DNA of 51,502 nucleotides from the NCBI RefSeq assembly GCF_003334255.1, contig NZ_QOWU01000037.1. The stretch is one strand, 5' to 3'. The position numbers and the translations under genes are program-made. Below are positions 13,726 to 24,861 of the stretch, in pieces. Numbering within the stretch: position 1 is the stretch's first letter; the number at the start of each line of letters is the position of its first letter. The notes under the pieces were generated by a model, which was given only the letters and a program-made list of their open reading frames with translations, ran no database searches and was not told the DNA's origin. Source of the stretch: Escherichia coli (lineage in GTDB: Bacteria > Pseudomonadota > Gammaproteobacteria > Enterobacterales > Enterobacteriaceae).

Positions 13726-14228
13726 CTGTGTCGTCGCTCCGGCTTCAGTGATTTACGCAATTCCCGCGCCAGAAAATAGCGTGTCCAGCTGCGGTTCTTT
13801 TCAAGCGCTTCCACCATGAAGTTATTACGTGGAGCCAGTCGCCAGCCGCTGCCACCGGATGCACCACGATGATGACTACGACGACGTTTTGCTCCTCCCC
13901 GGACACCAAAAAACAGAAACGCCGGATAGAAGTCACCAGAGATCATCCGGTTCCCCTTCCCGTTGCGCTGGTTAGGGGCAATGCGTGTCATAAAACCGGC
14001 TCGCTTTTTACTGGCTCTCGGCACCATATAACCAATCGAACGAGCCAGGCGTCCGGTCTGATAACCGGGGTTTTCACCCGGTGCCGACCGCGCACGGCGC
14101 ATCACCAGCCGACGGGCATCACGCATATGACGCTGCCCAATCGTGACAAACGCCCGCCGGACACGGGCGCGGTTAAAGCGCATCTCGGCGGGCTGCTGAA
14201 CATCAACGTGAAAAAAGGGAGTCGCCAT
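13722..14228 (-). CDS. HK97 gp10-like head-tail joining protein
   Basis: 168 aa and basic. Position is within the head-tail connector block. Confidence 0.6.
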   Translation of the reverse strand: MATPFFHVDVQQPAEMRFNRARVRRAFVTIGQRHMRDARRLVMRRARSAPGENPGYQTGRLARSIGYMVPRASKKRAGFMTRIAPNQRNGKGNRMISGDFYPAFLFFGVRGGAKRRRSHHRGASGGSGWRLAPRNNFMVEALEKNRSWTRYFLARELRKSLKPERRHR

Positions 14229-18468: not shown

Positions 18469-20202
18469 TTAAAGCGAGCGGATCCCGTAGGACTCAATGT
18501 GATCAGACAGCGTGTCTTCTTTCTCGTACAGCATGGCTCTGCCAACCGCCATAATCAGCGCAACTGCACCATCAATTTTGTTTTCCGCCTGCTCCTTGAC
18601 GGGCTTCACCACATCATCGTTACCCGGAATGGTTTTGCCGACCACGTTGCCGATACACCAGGTCATGATGGGATTGCCGTCATGATGAAAACGCCCCGAT
18701 TCAATTGCCGCTTCCAGCTCTTTCATCGGGTCGGACATGTTGGTGTAGTTCTGAATGATGGTGATGGGGTTCAGGTCTTCATCCGCAAGGTCATGCGACA
18801 GCCCGGTCGCCCCGAAGGGGTCGATGGGTGACTCACTGACCGGGCTGATTTTGTTCGCCGCTTTGGCCTCCTCGAGGATGTAGCGATAATCCACCTCCGC
18901 ACCATCGGTAACGGTCAGAACGCCCATTTCCACCCATTTCTGAAAGCGCTCGGCTGTCCGGCGATCTTCATTTTTCTCGACGCTGTACACCGTGTCATAC
19001 GGTACCCAGAAGCGCGGAGCCACACTGTAGTAATGCGTTTTACCGTCAATCTCGCGGGTATAAAGTCGCGCCATACTGTTCATATCCAGCTTACGCGCCA
19101 GGTCAAAGGCCAGAATGCACGGCTGCCCCTCAAACTGCTCAAGGGTCAGTGATTTATTCTCGCAGCTCTGCCAGCTCACCAGGTTGAAATACGCCGAACG
19201 CGCCGACACCCAGATATTGAGGTGTTTTGTTTTAAAGACGTTTGCCAGACGGGCGTTATTTTTCGCACGTTGCTGCTGGCTTAACAAAAACTCGCGATAA
19301 ACCGACACACCGATATTCGGGTTAGCTTTTTCAAGTACCTGCGGGTCGGTCCAGTCGTCGCCTTCGTCAACGGTATAGATGATCCCGAACAGTTCATCGT
19401 TGGGCACCGAGCCGTTGAGCATCTCGATGACTTCCCGCCGTTTGTCGTAGCACGGCCCCTCAATGTTGTACCCGGCGGTGGTAATGGCCCACATCAGTGG
19501 CTGGCGTCGCGCCCCCATCCCGGTAAGCATCGTGGTGTAAAGCGCATCTGTGGCGTGCTCGTGATATTCATCCACCACGGCACAGTGGGGTGATGAACCA
19601 TCACCAGGGTTACCGATCAGCGGTTCAAACCGCGCACCATCCTCCGGACGGTTCATGTTTGAGGCGTTAACCTCAATCCCGAACGCTTCCGTCAGCATGG
19701 GTGTGCGTTTACACATCAGTCGTGCCGGACGAAAGACTTCCCATGCCTGTTTCTCCGTCGTGGCACCGGAATACACTTCCGCGCCGAACTCGTTATCACA
19801 GGCAAAACAATACAGGGCAACACCGGCAGAGATTGCCGATTTGCCGTTCTTACGGGGAATTTCGGTATACACCTCCCGGAAGCGGCGCAACCGGGTGCCT
19901 TTATTGACCCAGCCAAACGCACAGCAGATCACAAAGAGCTGCCACGGCTCCAGCGTGATGGGCATCCGTTTAAATGCCCACTCACCCTTGGTGTGCGGCA
20001 ACAGCTGAATAAATTTCGCGGCCCGTTCAGCCAGGTCCTTGTCGAAGCGGTAACGAAACGACTTACTTTTTTCCTCCATCAGGTCATCAAGATGGCGCTG
20101 GCAGGCCTGAATCACAAACTGGCAGGCCACAATCTTTCCGCGCACGACATCACGGGCATACTGATTGGCAGCATTTACGTTGGGGTAAGATTTCCGGCTC
20201 AT
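18469..20202 (-). CDS. Terminase large subunit
   Basis: 577 aa. An ATPase Walker-like segment (IPRKNGKS) is followed by a nuclease domain. Confidence 0.9.
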
Positions 20203-20702
20203 GATTCGATGATTTTCAGAAACGGGTTAGTGGCTTTCTTCTGCCCCGCCAGGCCAATCAGACGCTGGCGGCTGCTGGGGTCGAGTCCGAGCATTGCCCC
20301 CGTACTGCTCATCTCGGACTCCTGTTCTTTTTTGGCGGTCAGCTCCGGATTTTTGACCATACCGCCCATTGCACCGGTGATGGTGTTGCCCTGTCTGGCA
20401 ATATTTTTCACGGCACGTCGCCAGAACTCGTAGGCCACGCACCACCGCTCAAGCACCGCGAGGTCAGTCACGCACAGCAGACCCTGACCGCAGAGTTCTT
20501 TAGTTGTCAGTTGCCACATGATCGTAGCGAGAGGGAGATCTTCTTCAGCGAACCACTCCGGTGGCTCAACACCTTTGATGGGCGTAAAAACAGGTTCATC
20601 TTTATTCAGGGCTCGCTTGCCGGGGTTTCCGGCCAGCGCCTTGCGCGCCGTTGGCTTGGGGCGACGCCCGGAACGCCCCGCCGTTCCAGCCATATGCGGC
20701 AC
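20199..20702 (-). CDS. Terminase small subunit, P27 family
   Basis: 167 aa. The N-terminus [29 protein letters not shown] is typical of the P27 family. Confidence 0.8.
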
Positions 20703-20743
20703 TCCTGGTTAAATTTCATTTTTCGCGGGTATAAAAAAACGAT

Positions 20744-20792
20744 GGGGCGGGCAGTCCGGAAGACGTCAGGTCACAGAGATTTGACCCGCCCC
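20744..20792. other. Candidate cos/packaging-recognition region (GC inverted repeat between HNH and terS)
   Basis: ggggcggg (20744-20751) and cccgcccc (20785-20792) lie in the only intergenic gap of the HNH-TerS-TerL module. Confidence 0.3.
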
Positions 20793-20818
20793 TCCCCTCA
20801 GACAGTTGAGAATTATTA

Positions 20819-21169
20819 TCACTTTAGCCGTTCACGGGCCGTCTTCGCCTTATGGCACGGCCAGCACAGGCTCTGCAGATTACTGTCTGCATCGGTGCCG
20901 CCATGCGCTTTAGGGATGATGTGGTCAACGGTTTTCGCCTCACGCACCACACCAGCACGCAGACATAACTGACACAGGCCTTTGTCACGCTTCAATATGC
21001 GCGCGCGGATACTGTCCCACTTCGAACCGTAGCCGCGCTGATGACGGGATTGCCCCGGCTTGTATTGTTTCCAGCCTTCGCTTTTGTGGCTTTCGCAATA
21101 GCCTGACGGGTCAGTCGTGGTATGGCGGCAGCCGCGAACACGGCAGGCTTTTGGGATTCGTGATGGCAT
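20819..21169 (-). CDS. HNH endonuclease (terminase-associated, HK97 gp74-like role)
   Basis: Cys-rich N-terminus plus VDHIIPKAHGGTDADSNLQSLCWPCHKAKT. The Met at 21169 is chosen as the start. Confidence 0.85.
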   Translation of the reverse strand: MPSRIPKACRVRGCRHTTTDPSGYCESHKSEGWKQYKPGQSRHQRGYGSKWDSIRARILKRDKGLCQLCLRAGVVREAKTVDHIIPKAHGGTDADSNLQSLCWPCHKAKTARERLK

Positions 21170-21289
21170 ATGTACTCCAATGAAGAAGCCACCGACATAG
21201 CCTCCTCCATTCATCGTGAAACTATTTTCATCTACGCAGTCATGAATTCTTTGTAGAGTTGTGATCAATACAACTCACTAATGGAGAGG

Positions 21290-21326
21290 CTTGTCCAACA
21301 CGTTGGACAAGTTTCCTGTTTGATTT
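21290..21326 (+). terminator. Rho-independent terminator-like hairpin with no obvious upstream + strand gene
   Basis: Perfect 9-bp stem cttgtccaa/ttggacaag with a 4-nt loop, followed by tttcctgtttgattt. Confidence 0.45.
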
Positions 21327-21391
21327 ACTGGACACTATAGAAGGACAGAATGCCTTCCTCACTCGAATAACATTAATTAAGGAGGTTCAAC

Positions 21392-21514
21392 ATGTTTCAT
21401 TCCACAAATCATCAGGCTGTAATTATGGCTGTATCAGTTTGTGCCACAGACCTTTTCCGCTTCACTTTGAGCCTGATTCATTTCTACCTGACCGGCTCGC
21501 CTCTATCTTTTTAA
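21392..21514 (+). CDS. Hypothetical 40-aa hydrophobic peptide with a strong Shine-Dalgarno; not in the ORF track
   Basis: AAGGAGG lies 6 nt upstream of the ATG. Translation: MFHSTNHQAVIMAVSVCATDLFRFTLSLIHFYLTGSPLSF. Confidence 0.3.
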   Translation: MFHSTNHQAVIMAVSVCATDLFRFTLSLIHFYLTGSPLSF

Positions 21515-21694
21515 TCCCCGCTTTATCCAAATTGCATTGCCAGAATGCCGACAACAGACTGACATTCAAATCCTGACTACCTCCAATAGTCTGACCGTAC
21601 ACCTATATAGTTTTAAATTTCATCAATCCATTTAACTATCGTTTAATTGTTGTCACATAGGATTCTGCCGTTTTTAACAATGCAGGATAATAAG

Positions 21695-21988
21695 ATGAAA
21701 AAAATGTTGTTTTCTGCCGCTCTGGCAATGCTTATTACAGGATGTGCTCAACAGACGTTTACTGTTGGAAACAAACCGACAGCAGTAACGCCAAAGGAAA
21801 CCATCACCCATCATTTCTTCGTTTCGGGAATTGGACAGGAGAAAACTGTTGATGCAGCCAAAATTTGTGGCGGCGCAGAAAATGTTGTTAAAACAGAAAC
21901 CCAGCAAACATTCGTAAATGGATTGCTCGGTTTTATTACTTTAGGCATTTATACTCCGCTGGAAGCGCGTGTGTATTGCTCACAATAA
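21695..21988 (+). CDS. bor: Bor lipoprotein (serum-resistance moron)
   Basis: MKKMLFSAALAMLITGCAQQTFTVGNKPTAV... includes the lipobox LITGC and is near-identical to lambda/DLP12 Bor as recalled. Confidence 0.9.
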   Translation: MKKMLFSAALAMLITGCAQQTFTVGNKPTAVTPKETITHHFFVSGIGQEKTVDAAKICGGAENVVKTETQQTFVNGLLGFITLGIYTPLEARVYCSQ

Positions 21989-22019
21989 TTGCATGAGTTG
22001 CCCATCGATATGGGCAGCT

Positions 22020-22481
22020 CTATCTGCACTGCTCATTAATATACTTCTGGGTTCCTTCCAGTTGTTTTTGCATAGTGATCAGCCTCTCTCTGAGGGTGAA
22101 ATAATCCTGTTCAGCGGTGTCTGCCAGTCGGGGGGAGGCTGCATTATCCACGCCGGAGGCGGTGGTGGCTTCACGCACTGACTGACAGACTGCTTTGATG
22201 TGCAACCGACGACGACCAGCGGCAACATCATCACGCAGAGCATCATTTTCAGCTTTCGCATCAGCTAACTCCTTCGTGTATTTTGCATCGAGCGCAGCAA
22301 CATCACGCTGACGCATCTGCATGTCAGTAATTGCCGCGTTCGCCAGCTTCAGTTCTTTGGCATTTTTGTCGCGCTGGGCTTTATAGGTAATGGCGTTATC
22401 ACGGTAATGATTAACAGCCCATGACAGGCAGACGATGATGCAGATAACCAGAGCGGAGATAATCGCGGTTACTCTGTTCAT
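22020..22481 (-). CDS. Rz: Spanin inner-membrane subunit Rz
   Basis: [39 protein letters not shown]... is RzpD-like. Confidence 0.9.
22079..22261 (-). CDS. Rz1: Spanin outer-membrane lipoprotein Rz1 (embedded in Rz, +1 frame)
   Basis: [23 protein letters not shown]... has a lipobox and a Pro-rich mature part. Confidence 0.85.
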
Positions 22482-22975
22482 TGCTGACCCCACAAACAGA
22501 TTTCACGCTCAATCTCACGACGAGTCATGAGACCTTTCCATTGCTTACCGCCAGCATATGTCCAGCGACGTAACTGATCACATGCGCCTTTGATATCGCC
22601 CTGGTTTATTTTGCGAAGAAGCGTCGATGTTCTGAAATTGCCAGCACCCACGTTGTAAACGAATGAGTAAAGAGCGCCGCGCGTTGTTTCCGGTATATCG
22701 ACTTCGATGTATGGGTTAATTTGTCTGGCGACAGTGGCAAGGTCTTTATTCAAGAGTGCTTTGCATTCTGCTTTGGTATACGTTTTACCGAGCATGATGT
22801 CTTTTCCTGTATGCCCGTGACATACGGTCCATACACCAACAATATCTTTGTATGGTATGTAGCTGACACCTTCCAGACCATCGTTACCACTTGGGCCAGT
22901 GATTAACACTGATGCTATAGCAATTGCTCCGCCACCAATAGCAGCAGCAACGGCTTTTCGTAATGATGGAGGCAT
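22478..22975 (-). CDS. SAR endolysin (phage-21 R / RrrD-type lysozyme)
   Basis: An N-terminal signal-arrest-release helix ([18 protein letters not shown]) is followed by a T4-lysozyme-like core. Confidence 0.9.
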
Positions 22976-23190
22976 TATTCACCTCTCGCAGCCTTGCGCT
23001 TATCTTCTTTAATCTTGAAATAAAGGTTTGTCAGGTACGTCAGCAGGCCAAATACCAGGCTACCCAGCACACCTATTGCTGCCCACTGTGAGGGCGTGAC
23101 TTTATCGAGCAGCTGTAAAAACCAGTAACCGGCACTACCTGCTGAGGTGCCATAGGCGACACCCGTTGTTAACTTATCCATGGATTTCAT
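22975..23190 (-). CDS. Pinholin (phage-21 S / EssD-type) with dual-start motif
   Basis: [30 protein letters not shown]... has Met1 and Met4 dual starts and two TMDs. Confidence 0.9.
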
Positions 23191-23778
23191 AACCCCACCT
23201 CGCAGACAAAGCGGGTGTAAATTGAGGGAATACAACGTATCGCAAAAAAGCAGAAACGTAACAGACTCGGAGTCAGTGAATAACTCAGGTATTGAGTTAT
23301 CAGCTAATATCGAGACTCAAAAAATGGAAAAACCAGCTCGACGGCGGGTTTAAGCTGTGTGACGAAGTAACCACTCTTAACAGCATAACCAATTTTTTAC
23401 GTACGTAAACCACTGAATGATATTTATGAGAATGCTACCGAGTGTTCAAAACACCACCACAAATACATAAGAAAACCTCAACAAATAACCAATAAATAAT
23501 TTCCGGCGTTATTTTTAGTTAATTTAAATTAAACCATCGAATTATAGACCCCCCATAAATAACAGCCATTAATATAAATTAGCTAATAGGTTTATTTTTG
23601 TTCAAATAAGAGCCATAAATAGGTTTCGATAGAAAAAGTTCAGATAAAAATAGAGATCTACTTCACAAATTAAATGAGAAACTAAAACTTACATCTTGAA
23701 ATAATCACATTGATTAGATGAATATTTATCGCGCAGTGACATCATTTTTTAATAATAGTTCAAAAAAAAGGGCTCACG

Positions 23779-24861
23779 ATGAAAAAATTAACAGTGGCAA
23801 TTTCTGCTGTAGCTGCATCAGTACTGATGGCGATGTCTGCTCAGGCAGCTGAAATTTATAATAAAGACAGTAACAAGCTGGATCTGTACGGGAAAGTTAA
23901 TGCTAAGCACTACTTCTCCTCTAATGATGCAGATGATGGTGATACTACTTATGCCCGTCTTGGCTTCAAAGGTGAAACCCAAATCAACGATCAACTGACT
24001 GGTTTCGGTCAGTGGGAATATGAATTCAAAGGCAACCGCGCTGAATCTCAAGGTTCCTCCAAAGATAAAACCCGTCTTGCCTTCGCTGGCCTGAAATTCG
24101 GTGACTACGGCTCCATCGATTACGGCCGTAACTACGGTGTAGCATACGACATCGGTGCGTGGACTGACGTCCTGCCAGAATTCGGTGGTGACACTTGGAC
24201 TCAAACAGATGTGTTCATGACTGGTCGCACCACTGGTGTTGCAACTTATCGTAACAACGACTTCTTTGGTCTGGTTGATGGTCTGAACTTTGCTGCTCAG
24301 TATCAGGGTAAAAATGACCGCACTGACGTAACTGAAGCTAATGGTGATGGTTTCGGTTTCTCCACTACTTATGAGTATGAAGGATTCGGTGTAGGTGCAA
24401 CCTATGCTAAATCTGATCGCACTAATAATCAGGTTATCTACGGTAACAACGGTCTGAATGCTTCTGGTCAAAATGCTGAAGTATGGGCAGCTGGTCTGAA
24501 ATATGATGCGAACAACATCTATCTGGCCACCACCTATTCTGAAACCCAGAACATGACTGTTTTTGGTAATAACCATATTGCCAACAAAGCACAAAACTTC
24601 GAAGCTGTTGCACAATATCAGTTCGACTTCGGCCTGCGTCCATCCGTTGCTTACCTGCATTCTAAAGGAAAAGACTTGGGTGTTTGGGGTGATCAGGACC
24701 TGGTTGAATATGTTGATGTAGGTGCAACCTATTACTTCAACAAAAATATGTCCACTTTTGTTGACTACAAAATCAACCTGATTGATAAGAGCGATTTCAC
24801 GAAAGCATCTGGCGTTGCTACCGATGATATCGTTGCTGTAGGTATGGTTTACCAGTTCTAA
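23779..24861 (+). CDS. nmpC: Phage-borne general porin (NmpC/Lc family moron)
   Basis: Signal peptide followed by [17 protein letters not shown]... and a C-terminal VGMVYQF. It is a paralogue of PhoE at 41335-42390. Confidence 0.9.

Follow-up and report, generated by a model that had tools for sequence, protein, structure and literature searches.

Class II and class III transcription units of T7-type phages share one layout, in which a phage promoter is followed by a 5′-proximal hairpin, a leader with a Shine-Dalgarno (SD) sequence and a short gene. Tandem T7-like promoters reportedly also occur in enterobacterial genomes that lack a polymerase gene: Chen and Schneider are said to have described them in 2006 in islands of 4–13 kb with an integrase and direct repeats, and to have proposed a dependence of these islands on T7-like phages. 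Here we describe a locus of related make-up in a stretch of 51,502 nucleotides from Escherichia coli (contig NZ_QOWU01000037.1, hereafter the window), which contains an SfIV/HK97-like temperate prophage with its late genes on the − strand. The locus lies in the 526-nt gap between the start of an HNH endonuclease gene and bor, where the RefSeq annotation gives no feature, and its + strand would carry, in this order, a T7-group promoter, a hairpin, a K1E/SP6-group promoter, a leader with an SD sequence and a 40-codon gene. We lean towards reading positions 21266–21514 as one expression cassette, built like the transcription unit of a T7-type phage but situated in a prophage without such a polymerase, which would be transcribed by an invading phage.

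Candidate promoters were scored by position weight matrices (PWMs) made from natural promoters of T7 (n = 17), Erwinia phage FE44 (n = 11), K1E (n = 11) and SP6 (n = 9), and the natural ranges given here are leave-one-out values. The upstream site scored 27.9 bits on the FE44 PWM (natural range 18.7–36.6) and 22.4 bits on the T7 PWM, at the bottom of the natural range (22.0–38.7), and the next best T7-group candidate in the window reached at most 11.5 bits. Positions 21264–21284 are identical (21/21) to the φ4.3 promoter of FE44, a Berlinvirus, the annotation of which is itself computational (PHIRE), and the same sequence is present at sites in 285P, PP74 and other T7-group coliphages. The downstream site, 57 nt away in tandem, scored 36.9 bits on the K1E PWM (natural range 21.0–36.8) and 28.4 bits on the SP6 PWM (natural range 24.5–34.9), while the best promoter score elsewhere in the window was 12.3 bits. 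No other site in the window matched the SP6 consensus with three or fewer mismatches, and none of 100 shuffled sequences contained such a match. This site is identical (23/23) to the K1E promoter at position 13925, its sequence is annotated as a promoter in the K1E record X78310, and in BLAST it recurred 7–9 times per genome of Vectrevirus (K1E-like) coliphages at identities of 27/28–28/29. Judged by sequence, both promoters are within the range of natural ones. A gene for a single-subunit RNA polymerase (RNAP) was found neither in the window, whose longest open reading frame (ORF) is 635 amino acids (aa), nor in the complete genome of SfIV, which carries the cassette. A first reading of this DNA, hereafter the original prediction, had missed the two single-subunit-RNAP promoters, which explain the layout of the locus.

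The promoters vary among relatives in a patterned way. At the downstream site, the −12 to −10 triplet alternates among natural types, namely CTG (K1E), CTT and GGT (SP6); SfIV has GGT, and one E. coli locus (L152) has the perfect SP6 consensus with 36.6 bits. At the T7-group site, the base at −11 is A or G depending on the lineage. The −12 to −10 and −11 differences fall at positions that set polymerase specificity. Across all complete haplotypes the T7-group site scored 23.4–34.6 bits; at least one site was in the natural range in 9/9 promoter-pair haplotypes, and both were in all complete ones. In 80 further loci, which were ascertained through the peptide motif only, the SP6-group site was present in 80/80 (26.9–36.9 bits) and the T7-group site in 79/80. 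Nucleotide diversity, computed over 46 haplotypes, was lowest in the leader with the SD sequence (π = 0.031), followed by the promoters (0.055–0.068), the spacers (0.083–0.107), codons 1–23 of the ORF (0.118) and the rest of a spanin-gene remnant that runs on the opposite strand (0.134). The cassette is present in 632 of 5426 complete E. coli genomes (11.6%), where the Prokaryotic Genome Annotation Pipeline (PGAP) leaves it unannotated, and a single phage record labels the 40-aa ORF as a hypothetical protein.

Between the two promoters lies the hairpin that the original prediction had described as an orphan terminator. Its core is formed by a 5′ arm CTTGTCCAA (21290–21298), a loop CACG (21299–21302) and a 3′ arm TTGGACAAG (21303–21311), is followed by TTTCCTGTTTGATTT ending at 21326, and was extended to a 13-pair stem on the + strand by a terminator scan, corresponding to +4 to +33 of the transcript predicted from the T7-group promoter. 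The + strand RNA folds at −19.7 kcal/mol (z = −3.55), a stability reached by 0 of 200 shuffles. The reading from the − strand was rejected, in that the fold is weaker (−13.8 kcal/mol, z = −2.06), there is no T-tail, and wobble pairs become mismatches. Across 9 haplotypes, pairing was kept in 92% of the alignment cells, two pairs showed compensatory double changes (C-G to U-A and A-U to C-G), and six U·G cells pair on the + strand only and are mismatched on the other strand; the covariation score was reached by 0 of 500 shuffles, and slid controls scored far lower. This covariation, together with the strand-specific wobbles, indicates that the hairpin is an RNA element of the + strand transcript, which is selected for pairing. 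The hairpin thus stands as originally described, and no + strand gene lies upstream of it, the HNH gene being on the − strand. The case for its proposed role as a terminator is weak, since the U-tract is poor and unconserved and there is no upstream gene on the + strand; of what a rho-independent terminator requires, a stable stem-loop is present, and a conserved U-tract and a co-oriented upstream gene are absent. The T-rich tail that had been claimed does contain T residues, but it is no clean U-tract: the sequence after the extended stem is CUGUUUGAUUU, the tail begins with the 3′ strand of that stem and finishes with the upstream end (ATTTA) of the K1E/SP6-group promoter. In relatives the tail varies from TTTCCTG to CTTCCTG, CCTCCCG or TTGCCTA, which changes the proximal UUU to CUU, CCU or UUG. 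By sensitive BLAST, positions 21293–21343 match intergenic DNA of SP6-like Klebsiella phages, and the identical core GTCCAACACGTTGGAC lies directly before a promoter in one of them, KpnP_VR702.

A second inverted repeat was noticed at 21257–21277 (GAGTTGT-GATCAAT-ACAACTC), where it shares sequence with the upstream half of the T7-group promoter. One compensatory change in it (T-A to C-G) is present in SfIV-type sequences, and in other types a C·A mismatch on the + strand corresponds to a G·U pair on the − strand.

The transcript from the K1E-type promoter would begin with a 5′ stem-loop, GAAGG-ACAGAATG-CCTTC (21340–21357), in a 39-nt leader, followed by a perfect SD sequence AAGGAGG (21379–21385) and, after 6 nt, by the ATG at 21392. 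The stem-loop is not significant alone in the window (z = −0.04) but is so in the Klebsiella and FE44 versions (z = −2.2 and −2.4, respectively), and the leader resembles that of FE44 φ4.3, in layout too. The sequence TAAGGAGGTTCAAC was identical in 79 of the 80 loci ascertained through the peptide, and SD and ATG are conserved in relatives. The original prediction had placed the SD motif, its spacing and the 40-aa ORF correctly; its gap of about 65 nt from the tail to the SD sequence is actually 53 nt (counted from 21326), and 65 nt fits the distance to the ATG.

The 40-aa ORF, which encodes MFHSTNHQAVIMAVSVCATDLFRFTLSLIHFYLTGSPLSF, is probably a real small gene, and its translation is predicted. 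It is intact with the same start in all complete haplotypes among 87 loci (16 distinct peptides), in the 80 further loci and in 38-aa homologues of Klebsiella; the related loci with an intact ORF number about 170. The end of the ORF overlaps, on the opposite strand, the last 17 codons of the spanin-gene remnant; third positions of the ORF are second positions of antisense spanin codons. In codons 20–41 there were 10 synonymous versus 4 non-synonymous changes (9 of 14 at third positions), whereas in the spanin frame the shared stretch 21462–21514 had 10 non-synonymous versus 1 synonymous; deeper into the spanin gene, changes again follow the third-position pattern that is usual for the spanin frame. 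In six divergent members from E. coli, Shigella and Klebsiella, the ratio of non-synonymous to synonymous divergence per site (pN/pS) was 0.1–0.4 in the ORF frame versus about 1 in the spanin frame. By these substitution patterns, purifying selection acts on the C-terminal half in the frame of the ORF itself, even though the spanin gene overlaps it in antisense. The N-terminal part is, by the same measure, unconstrained or diversifying. The comparison of ORF conservation with synonymous drift that had been suggested earlier came out in favour of the ORF, which was intact in every relative examined. Residues F24, L26, H30, L33, T34, L38, S39 and F40 are invariant in the family. AlphaFold2 predicts a single helix at residues 2–34 (mean predicted local distance difference test, pLDDT, 84), and the best 19-residue Kyte-Doolittle mean is 1.65 for the window peptide, 1.83 for that of Kp4864 and 1.41–1.45 for other Klebsiella forms; the earlier idea of a small membrane peptide or toxin is possible. 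Profile searches in Pfam, PHROG and PADLOC gave no match save one marginal PHROG (E = 0.019, one Klebsiella form), and the peptide has no similarity to T7-group gp4.3. By tblastn against 50,697 phage records the peptide was found only in these prophages, and a search of 5.8 billion proteins returned only E. coli and Klebsiella forms of 38–68 aa.

The same arrangement is present in the Klebsiella temperate phages Kp4864-1 and Kp4856-1 and in one further contig, after the same kind of o-spanin gene: promoters, a leader with a 5′ stem-loop, a strong SD sequence and a 38-aa ORF ending in ...H(F/Y)YLTG(S/Y)PLSF. The promoters there are of other types. One, TAATAGTGGCGAGTATAGAAG, has 6–8 copies in Klebsiella Molineuxvirinae; in Kp7, which is among these, it stands ahead of the major capsid gene. 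Another, AATTAGGGCCCACTATAGAGA, matches KP32-type phages, with Klebsiella phages making up 135 of the 144 records matched, and a T7-group site of 22.9 bits is present in one member. The design has thus been preserved, and its promoters have been swapped for those of virulent Autographiviridae that infect the same host genus. The Klebsiella cassettes (L146, 1340–1420; L149, 2410–2470) have an extra conserved stretch between promoters and SD sequence, GAGTAGGAACAG(T/C)CACAGGGAGA...GTTACACAATAGAAATC, perhaps part of the leader or a promoter of a third type.

The coordinates of the cassette and of the surrounding genes are collected in Table 1.

Table 1. Features of the cassette and its surroundings in the window, in order of position
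Feature	Positions	Strand	Remarks
Large terminase (terL)	18469–20202	−	
Small terminase (terS)	20199–20702	−	
HNH endonuclease gene	20819–21169	−	
T7-group (Berlinvirus-type) single-subunit RNAP promoter, putative	21266–21288	+	CAATACAACTCACTAATGGAGAG; predicted +1 G21283
Conserved RNA hairpin	21286–21315	+	Core 21290–21311; from fold and covariation
K1E/SP6-group (Molineuxvirinae, Vectrevirus-type) RNAP promoter, putative	21323–21345	+	ATTTACTGGACACTATAGAAGGA; predicted +1 G21340
Leader of the predicted K1E-type transcript	21340–21391	+	5′ stem-loop and SD sequence
40-aa ORF, probable small gene	21392–21514	+	Variable N-terminal half, conserved C-terminal half (D)LFRFTLSLIHFYLTGSPLSF
3′ remnant of SfIV/LysC-type o-spanin gene (recombination scar)	21462–21581	−	Aligns to the end of SfIV gp53
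Left edge of separate bor/iss module, outside the cassette	21576–21696	+	Match to lambda/434/21 bor upstream DNA
bor/iss coding sequence	21697–21990	+	
Rz	22020–22493	−	Lambda-type, functional Rz/Rz1 pair
Rz1	22079–22261	−	
Endolysin	22478–22975	−	
Holin	22975–23235	−	

The surroundings show where the module ends. Positions 21171–21581 have 85% identity to Shigella phage SfIV, which has no bor; within the gap, the SfIV match covers query positions 1–411 and the match to the DNA upstream of bor in lambda, 434 and 21 covers 406–526 at 93–96% identity. The counterpart of 21462–21581 in SfIV is the 3′ end of the o-spanin gene (gp53) on the opposite strand, and this gene is intact in other locus classes; in the window about its last 38 codons are left, adjoining the complete lambda-type Rz/Rz1 pair. 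By these alignments, the remnant is the scar where a lambda-type bor-Rz module replaced SfIV-type lysis genes. The junction of the bor module at about 21576–21581 and the lack of bor in SfIV mean that the ORF and the hairpin are not one unit with bor, contrary to the insulated moron proposed originally. Without bor, the DNA of 21171–21581 is found in SfIV, in further E. coli prophages of several locus classes and in Klebsiella phages. Across 87 related viral loci, the cassette invariably comes after the spanin end and, in most cases, before HNH-terS-terL, and the content beyond it is variable (bor, intact spanin genes or other genes). A linkage to the HNH-terminase module was ruled out by 50 HNH-related loci, taken from Edwardsiella, Citrobacter, Mangrovibacter, Photorhabdus and further genera and including the S. 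flexneri representative, in which both the promoters and the peptide motif are absent. As judged from these loci, the cassette travels with the spanin end and not with HNH.

Several further observations concern the flanks. In some relatives (such as L120) about 330 nt of additional sequence separate HNH from the cassette, and in two E. coli loci (L116 and L131) the cassette adjoins tail/baseplate genes, not HNH; these left flanks place the left boundary of the cassette module near 21172. A 33-codon in-frame upstream extension of the HNH gene (21170–21268, − strand, TTG start at 21268) was considered and rejected as non-coding because it is frame-shifted in SfIV. The cos site is probably in 20703–20818, between the HNH endonuclease and small terminase genes; the linear genome of SfIV has its end 58 nt past the stop codon of HNH and its start 67 nt ahead of terS. 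An OmpC/NmpC-like porin gene (23779–24861, + strand; Pfam Porin_1, E = 3e-152) lies between the late-regulatory region and the holin gene, 2.4 kb downstream of the cassette and in its orientation. The same slot in SfIV holds gp49 (356 aa) and gp48 (108 aa), neither of which has a Pfam match, and gp49 has no PADLOC match. An Rfam scan of 20000–23500 at a permissive threshold gave matches at chance level only.

As for the working of the cassette, which is antisense to the prophage late operon, we suppose that it would be silent in the lysogen and would be transcribed by the RNA polymerase of an infecting virulent Autographiviridae phage. The small, predicted helical peptide would then be made in the infected cell, along with read-through RNA that continues across bor and, in antisense, across the lysis genes. 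The trigger would be the invader's own polymerase, and two promoter types would widen the range of phages sensed. The least certain step is the last, in which the peptide may harm the invader or the infected cell, by exclusion or abortive infection.

Several results weigh against this reading. Some haplotypes have a weakened T7-group site (−6 A>G, 23.4 bits) or a weakened SP6-group site (−2 T>C or −3 A>T), and in two Klebsiella versions the hairpin is decayed. Codons 2–19 of the ORF had 22 non-synonymous versus 2 synonymous changes, with pN of 0.37–0.40 and pS of 0.12–0.14 when the window and SfIV types are compared. For SfIV-type peptides the best 19-residue Kyte-Doolittle mean is 0.81–0.90 (0.90 in SfIV), below the transmembrane-like level; since such hydrophobicity is found in some members only, a common membrane mechanism is uncertain. 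The peptide has no homology to known defence proteins (PADLOC), and transcription from the promoters would also run antisense to the lysis genes. Finally, no sigma-70-like promoter was found in 20600–22200, but only a simple consensus was scanned, so expression by the host polymerase is conceivable.

We consider three other accounts of the locus less likely than transcription by an invader's polymerase. The first, which we regard as improbable, takes the run-on transcript as the main product: it would be antisense to spanin, endolysin and holin, and maybe sense for downstream morons, namely bor and the OmpC-like porin in the window and gp49/gp48 in SfIV. A variant would have the invader exploited in the manner of a satellite. 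In favour of this account, single-subunit RNAPs are highly processive, and in all locus classes the promoters are directed, in antisense, into the lysis cassette, with co-oriented genes 0.3–2.4 kb downstream. However, those genes change with the class (porin, gp49/gp48, a different 267-aa ORF in L120-type loci, presence or absence of bor), whereas it is the small ORF that constantly accompanies the promoters; it has a perfect SD sequence of its own and is under selection. The packaging genes are upstream on the other strand, so a take-over of the satellite type would not be served.

The second account, which we find improbable as well, follows the original prediction in placing the unit under the host RNAP: the hairpin would be an intrinsic terminator that insulates a moron of the small ORF and bor, and the peptide a membrane peptide or toxin. 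This reading leaves unexplained why a pair of promoters in the natural range is swapped by host genus. The hairpin is indeed terminator-like by score, but its U-tract is weak and unconserved and nothing upstream on the + strand is there to be terminated; bor is indeed next and in the same orientation, but it has its own junction, and the cassette occurs without it in SfIV, other E. coli prophages and Klebsiella. The strong SD sequence, the conserved ORF and the predicted helical, moderately hydrophobic peptide would suit a host-transcribed moron, but the sigma-70-like promoter that it would need between hairpin and ORF was not found, the count of such sites being 0.

The third, to which we give little credence, is that the locus is a neutral relic, i.e. 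a functionless Autographiviridae fragment captured by illegitimate recombination, with an ORF that is open by chance. The homology of hairpin and promoter to an intergenic module of SP6-like Klebsiella phages, the similarity of the leader to the FE44 φ4.3 leader and the lack of purifying selection in the N-terminal half of the ORF would all be expected of a relic. It would not account for promoters and leader being more conserved than their flanks, for compensatory changes in the hairpin, for own-frame purifying selection on the C-terminal half of the ORF in both E. coli and Klebsiella, or for a host-appropriate exchange of promoters with the layout kept, nor for a presence in more than a tenth of complete E. 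coli genomes. Highly improbable, lastly, is a palindrome acting not as RNA but as a protein-binding DNA site or single-stranded DNA structure for packaging or replication near HNH and cos: the inverted repeat is perfect and near the HNH-terminase module, and symmetric changes would also preserve a palindrome, but the one-sided changes are + strand U·G wobbles that give A·C mismatches on the other strand and break DNA symmetry, an SP6-like lytic phage has the same hairpin, flanked by the end of a gene and a promoter, and the cassette is unlinked to HNH (50 HNH-related loci without it, two E. coli loci beside tail genes).

Transcription by the invader's polymerase could also be part of a wider pattern, which we put forward tentatively and consider doubtful at this stage: temperate phages of E. 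coli, Shigella and Klebsiella may keep a promoter trap, in which promoters captured from locally relevant Autographiviridae (Berlinvirus/T7, K1E/SP6, KP32-type and Klebsiella Molineuxvirinae) would fire a small helical effector peptide that aborts or excludes infection, with no protein sensor. Swaps of promoter specificity and a fast-evolving peptide N-terminus would then be the trace of an arms race. If true, a prophage would sense a whole class of virulent phages by their private RNA polymerase without a sensor protein and could be retargeted by a few base changes in the promoters, which would be a new trigger logic for phage defence and phage–phage conflict. It would also explain the T7-like promoters in polymerase-less genomes, a puzzle since 2006. 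An element that lacks annotation and is present in about 12% of complete E. coli genomes, as well as in Klebsiella, would gain a function; phages of the T7-like, K1E-like and KP32-like kinds are used in therapy directed at both hosts. Of interest in itself is the overlap, as a constrained small gene opposite the tail of an o-spanin gene.

In the literature we found nothing relevant on a natural defence triggered by a T7 promoter. We also found no report of a placement at the spanin end in full-length prophages, of a small gene overlapping a spanin gene, of a structured 5′ hairpin or of a genus-matched promoter exchange. The 2006 study of Chen and Schneider is not known to include a conserved small ORF with its signature of selection, hairpin covariation, spanin overlap or host-matched Klebsiella versions. 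The Sp1/Sp2 region of O157 Sakai, a candidate for one of the published islands, had no such promoter sites. Like the regions reported in that study, the present locus has tandem T7/SP6-group promoters, two in number here, and no matching polymerase gene, and the idea of transcription by an infecting T7-like phage is common to both; unlike those islands, it is found within full-length SfIV/HK97-like prophages, where the lysis module ends.

Among known systems, the Autographiviridae class II/III units (T7/FE44 φ4.3-gene 4.3, K1E and SP6) share with the cassette the same promoter sequences, a stem-loop near the 5′ end, a roughly 50-nt leader, a strong SD sequence and a short gene. The cassette differs from them in belonging to a temperate phage without a polymerase and in combining Studiervirinae and Molineuxvirinae promoters in one unit, and from the FE44/T7 unit in an ORF without detectable gp4.3 similarity. 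As with lambdoid morons such as bor, a small extra gene runs against late transcription at the lysis-packaging junction, but no host-type promoter was found, the cassette is inherited apart from bor, and its control elements are those of foreign phages. The predicted short single helix recalls the small toxins of type I toxin-antitoxin and abortive-infection systems, to which there is no homology; no antitoxin RNA was identified and the transmembrane character is inconsistent. With satellites such as P4 and the phage-inducible chromosomal islands (PICIs) the cassette would share activation by a factor from an invading phage, although what sets it off would be the recognition of a promoter by the invader's polymerase and not a protein–protein signal. 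In its parts it also resembles the engineered pET/T7 system, with a phage promoter, a 5′ stem-loop, a strong SD sequence and a gene that would be silent until a T7-type RNAP arrives; unlike pET/T7, it is natural, is conserved in prophages and has two promoter specificities.

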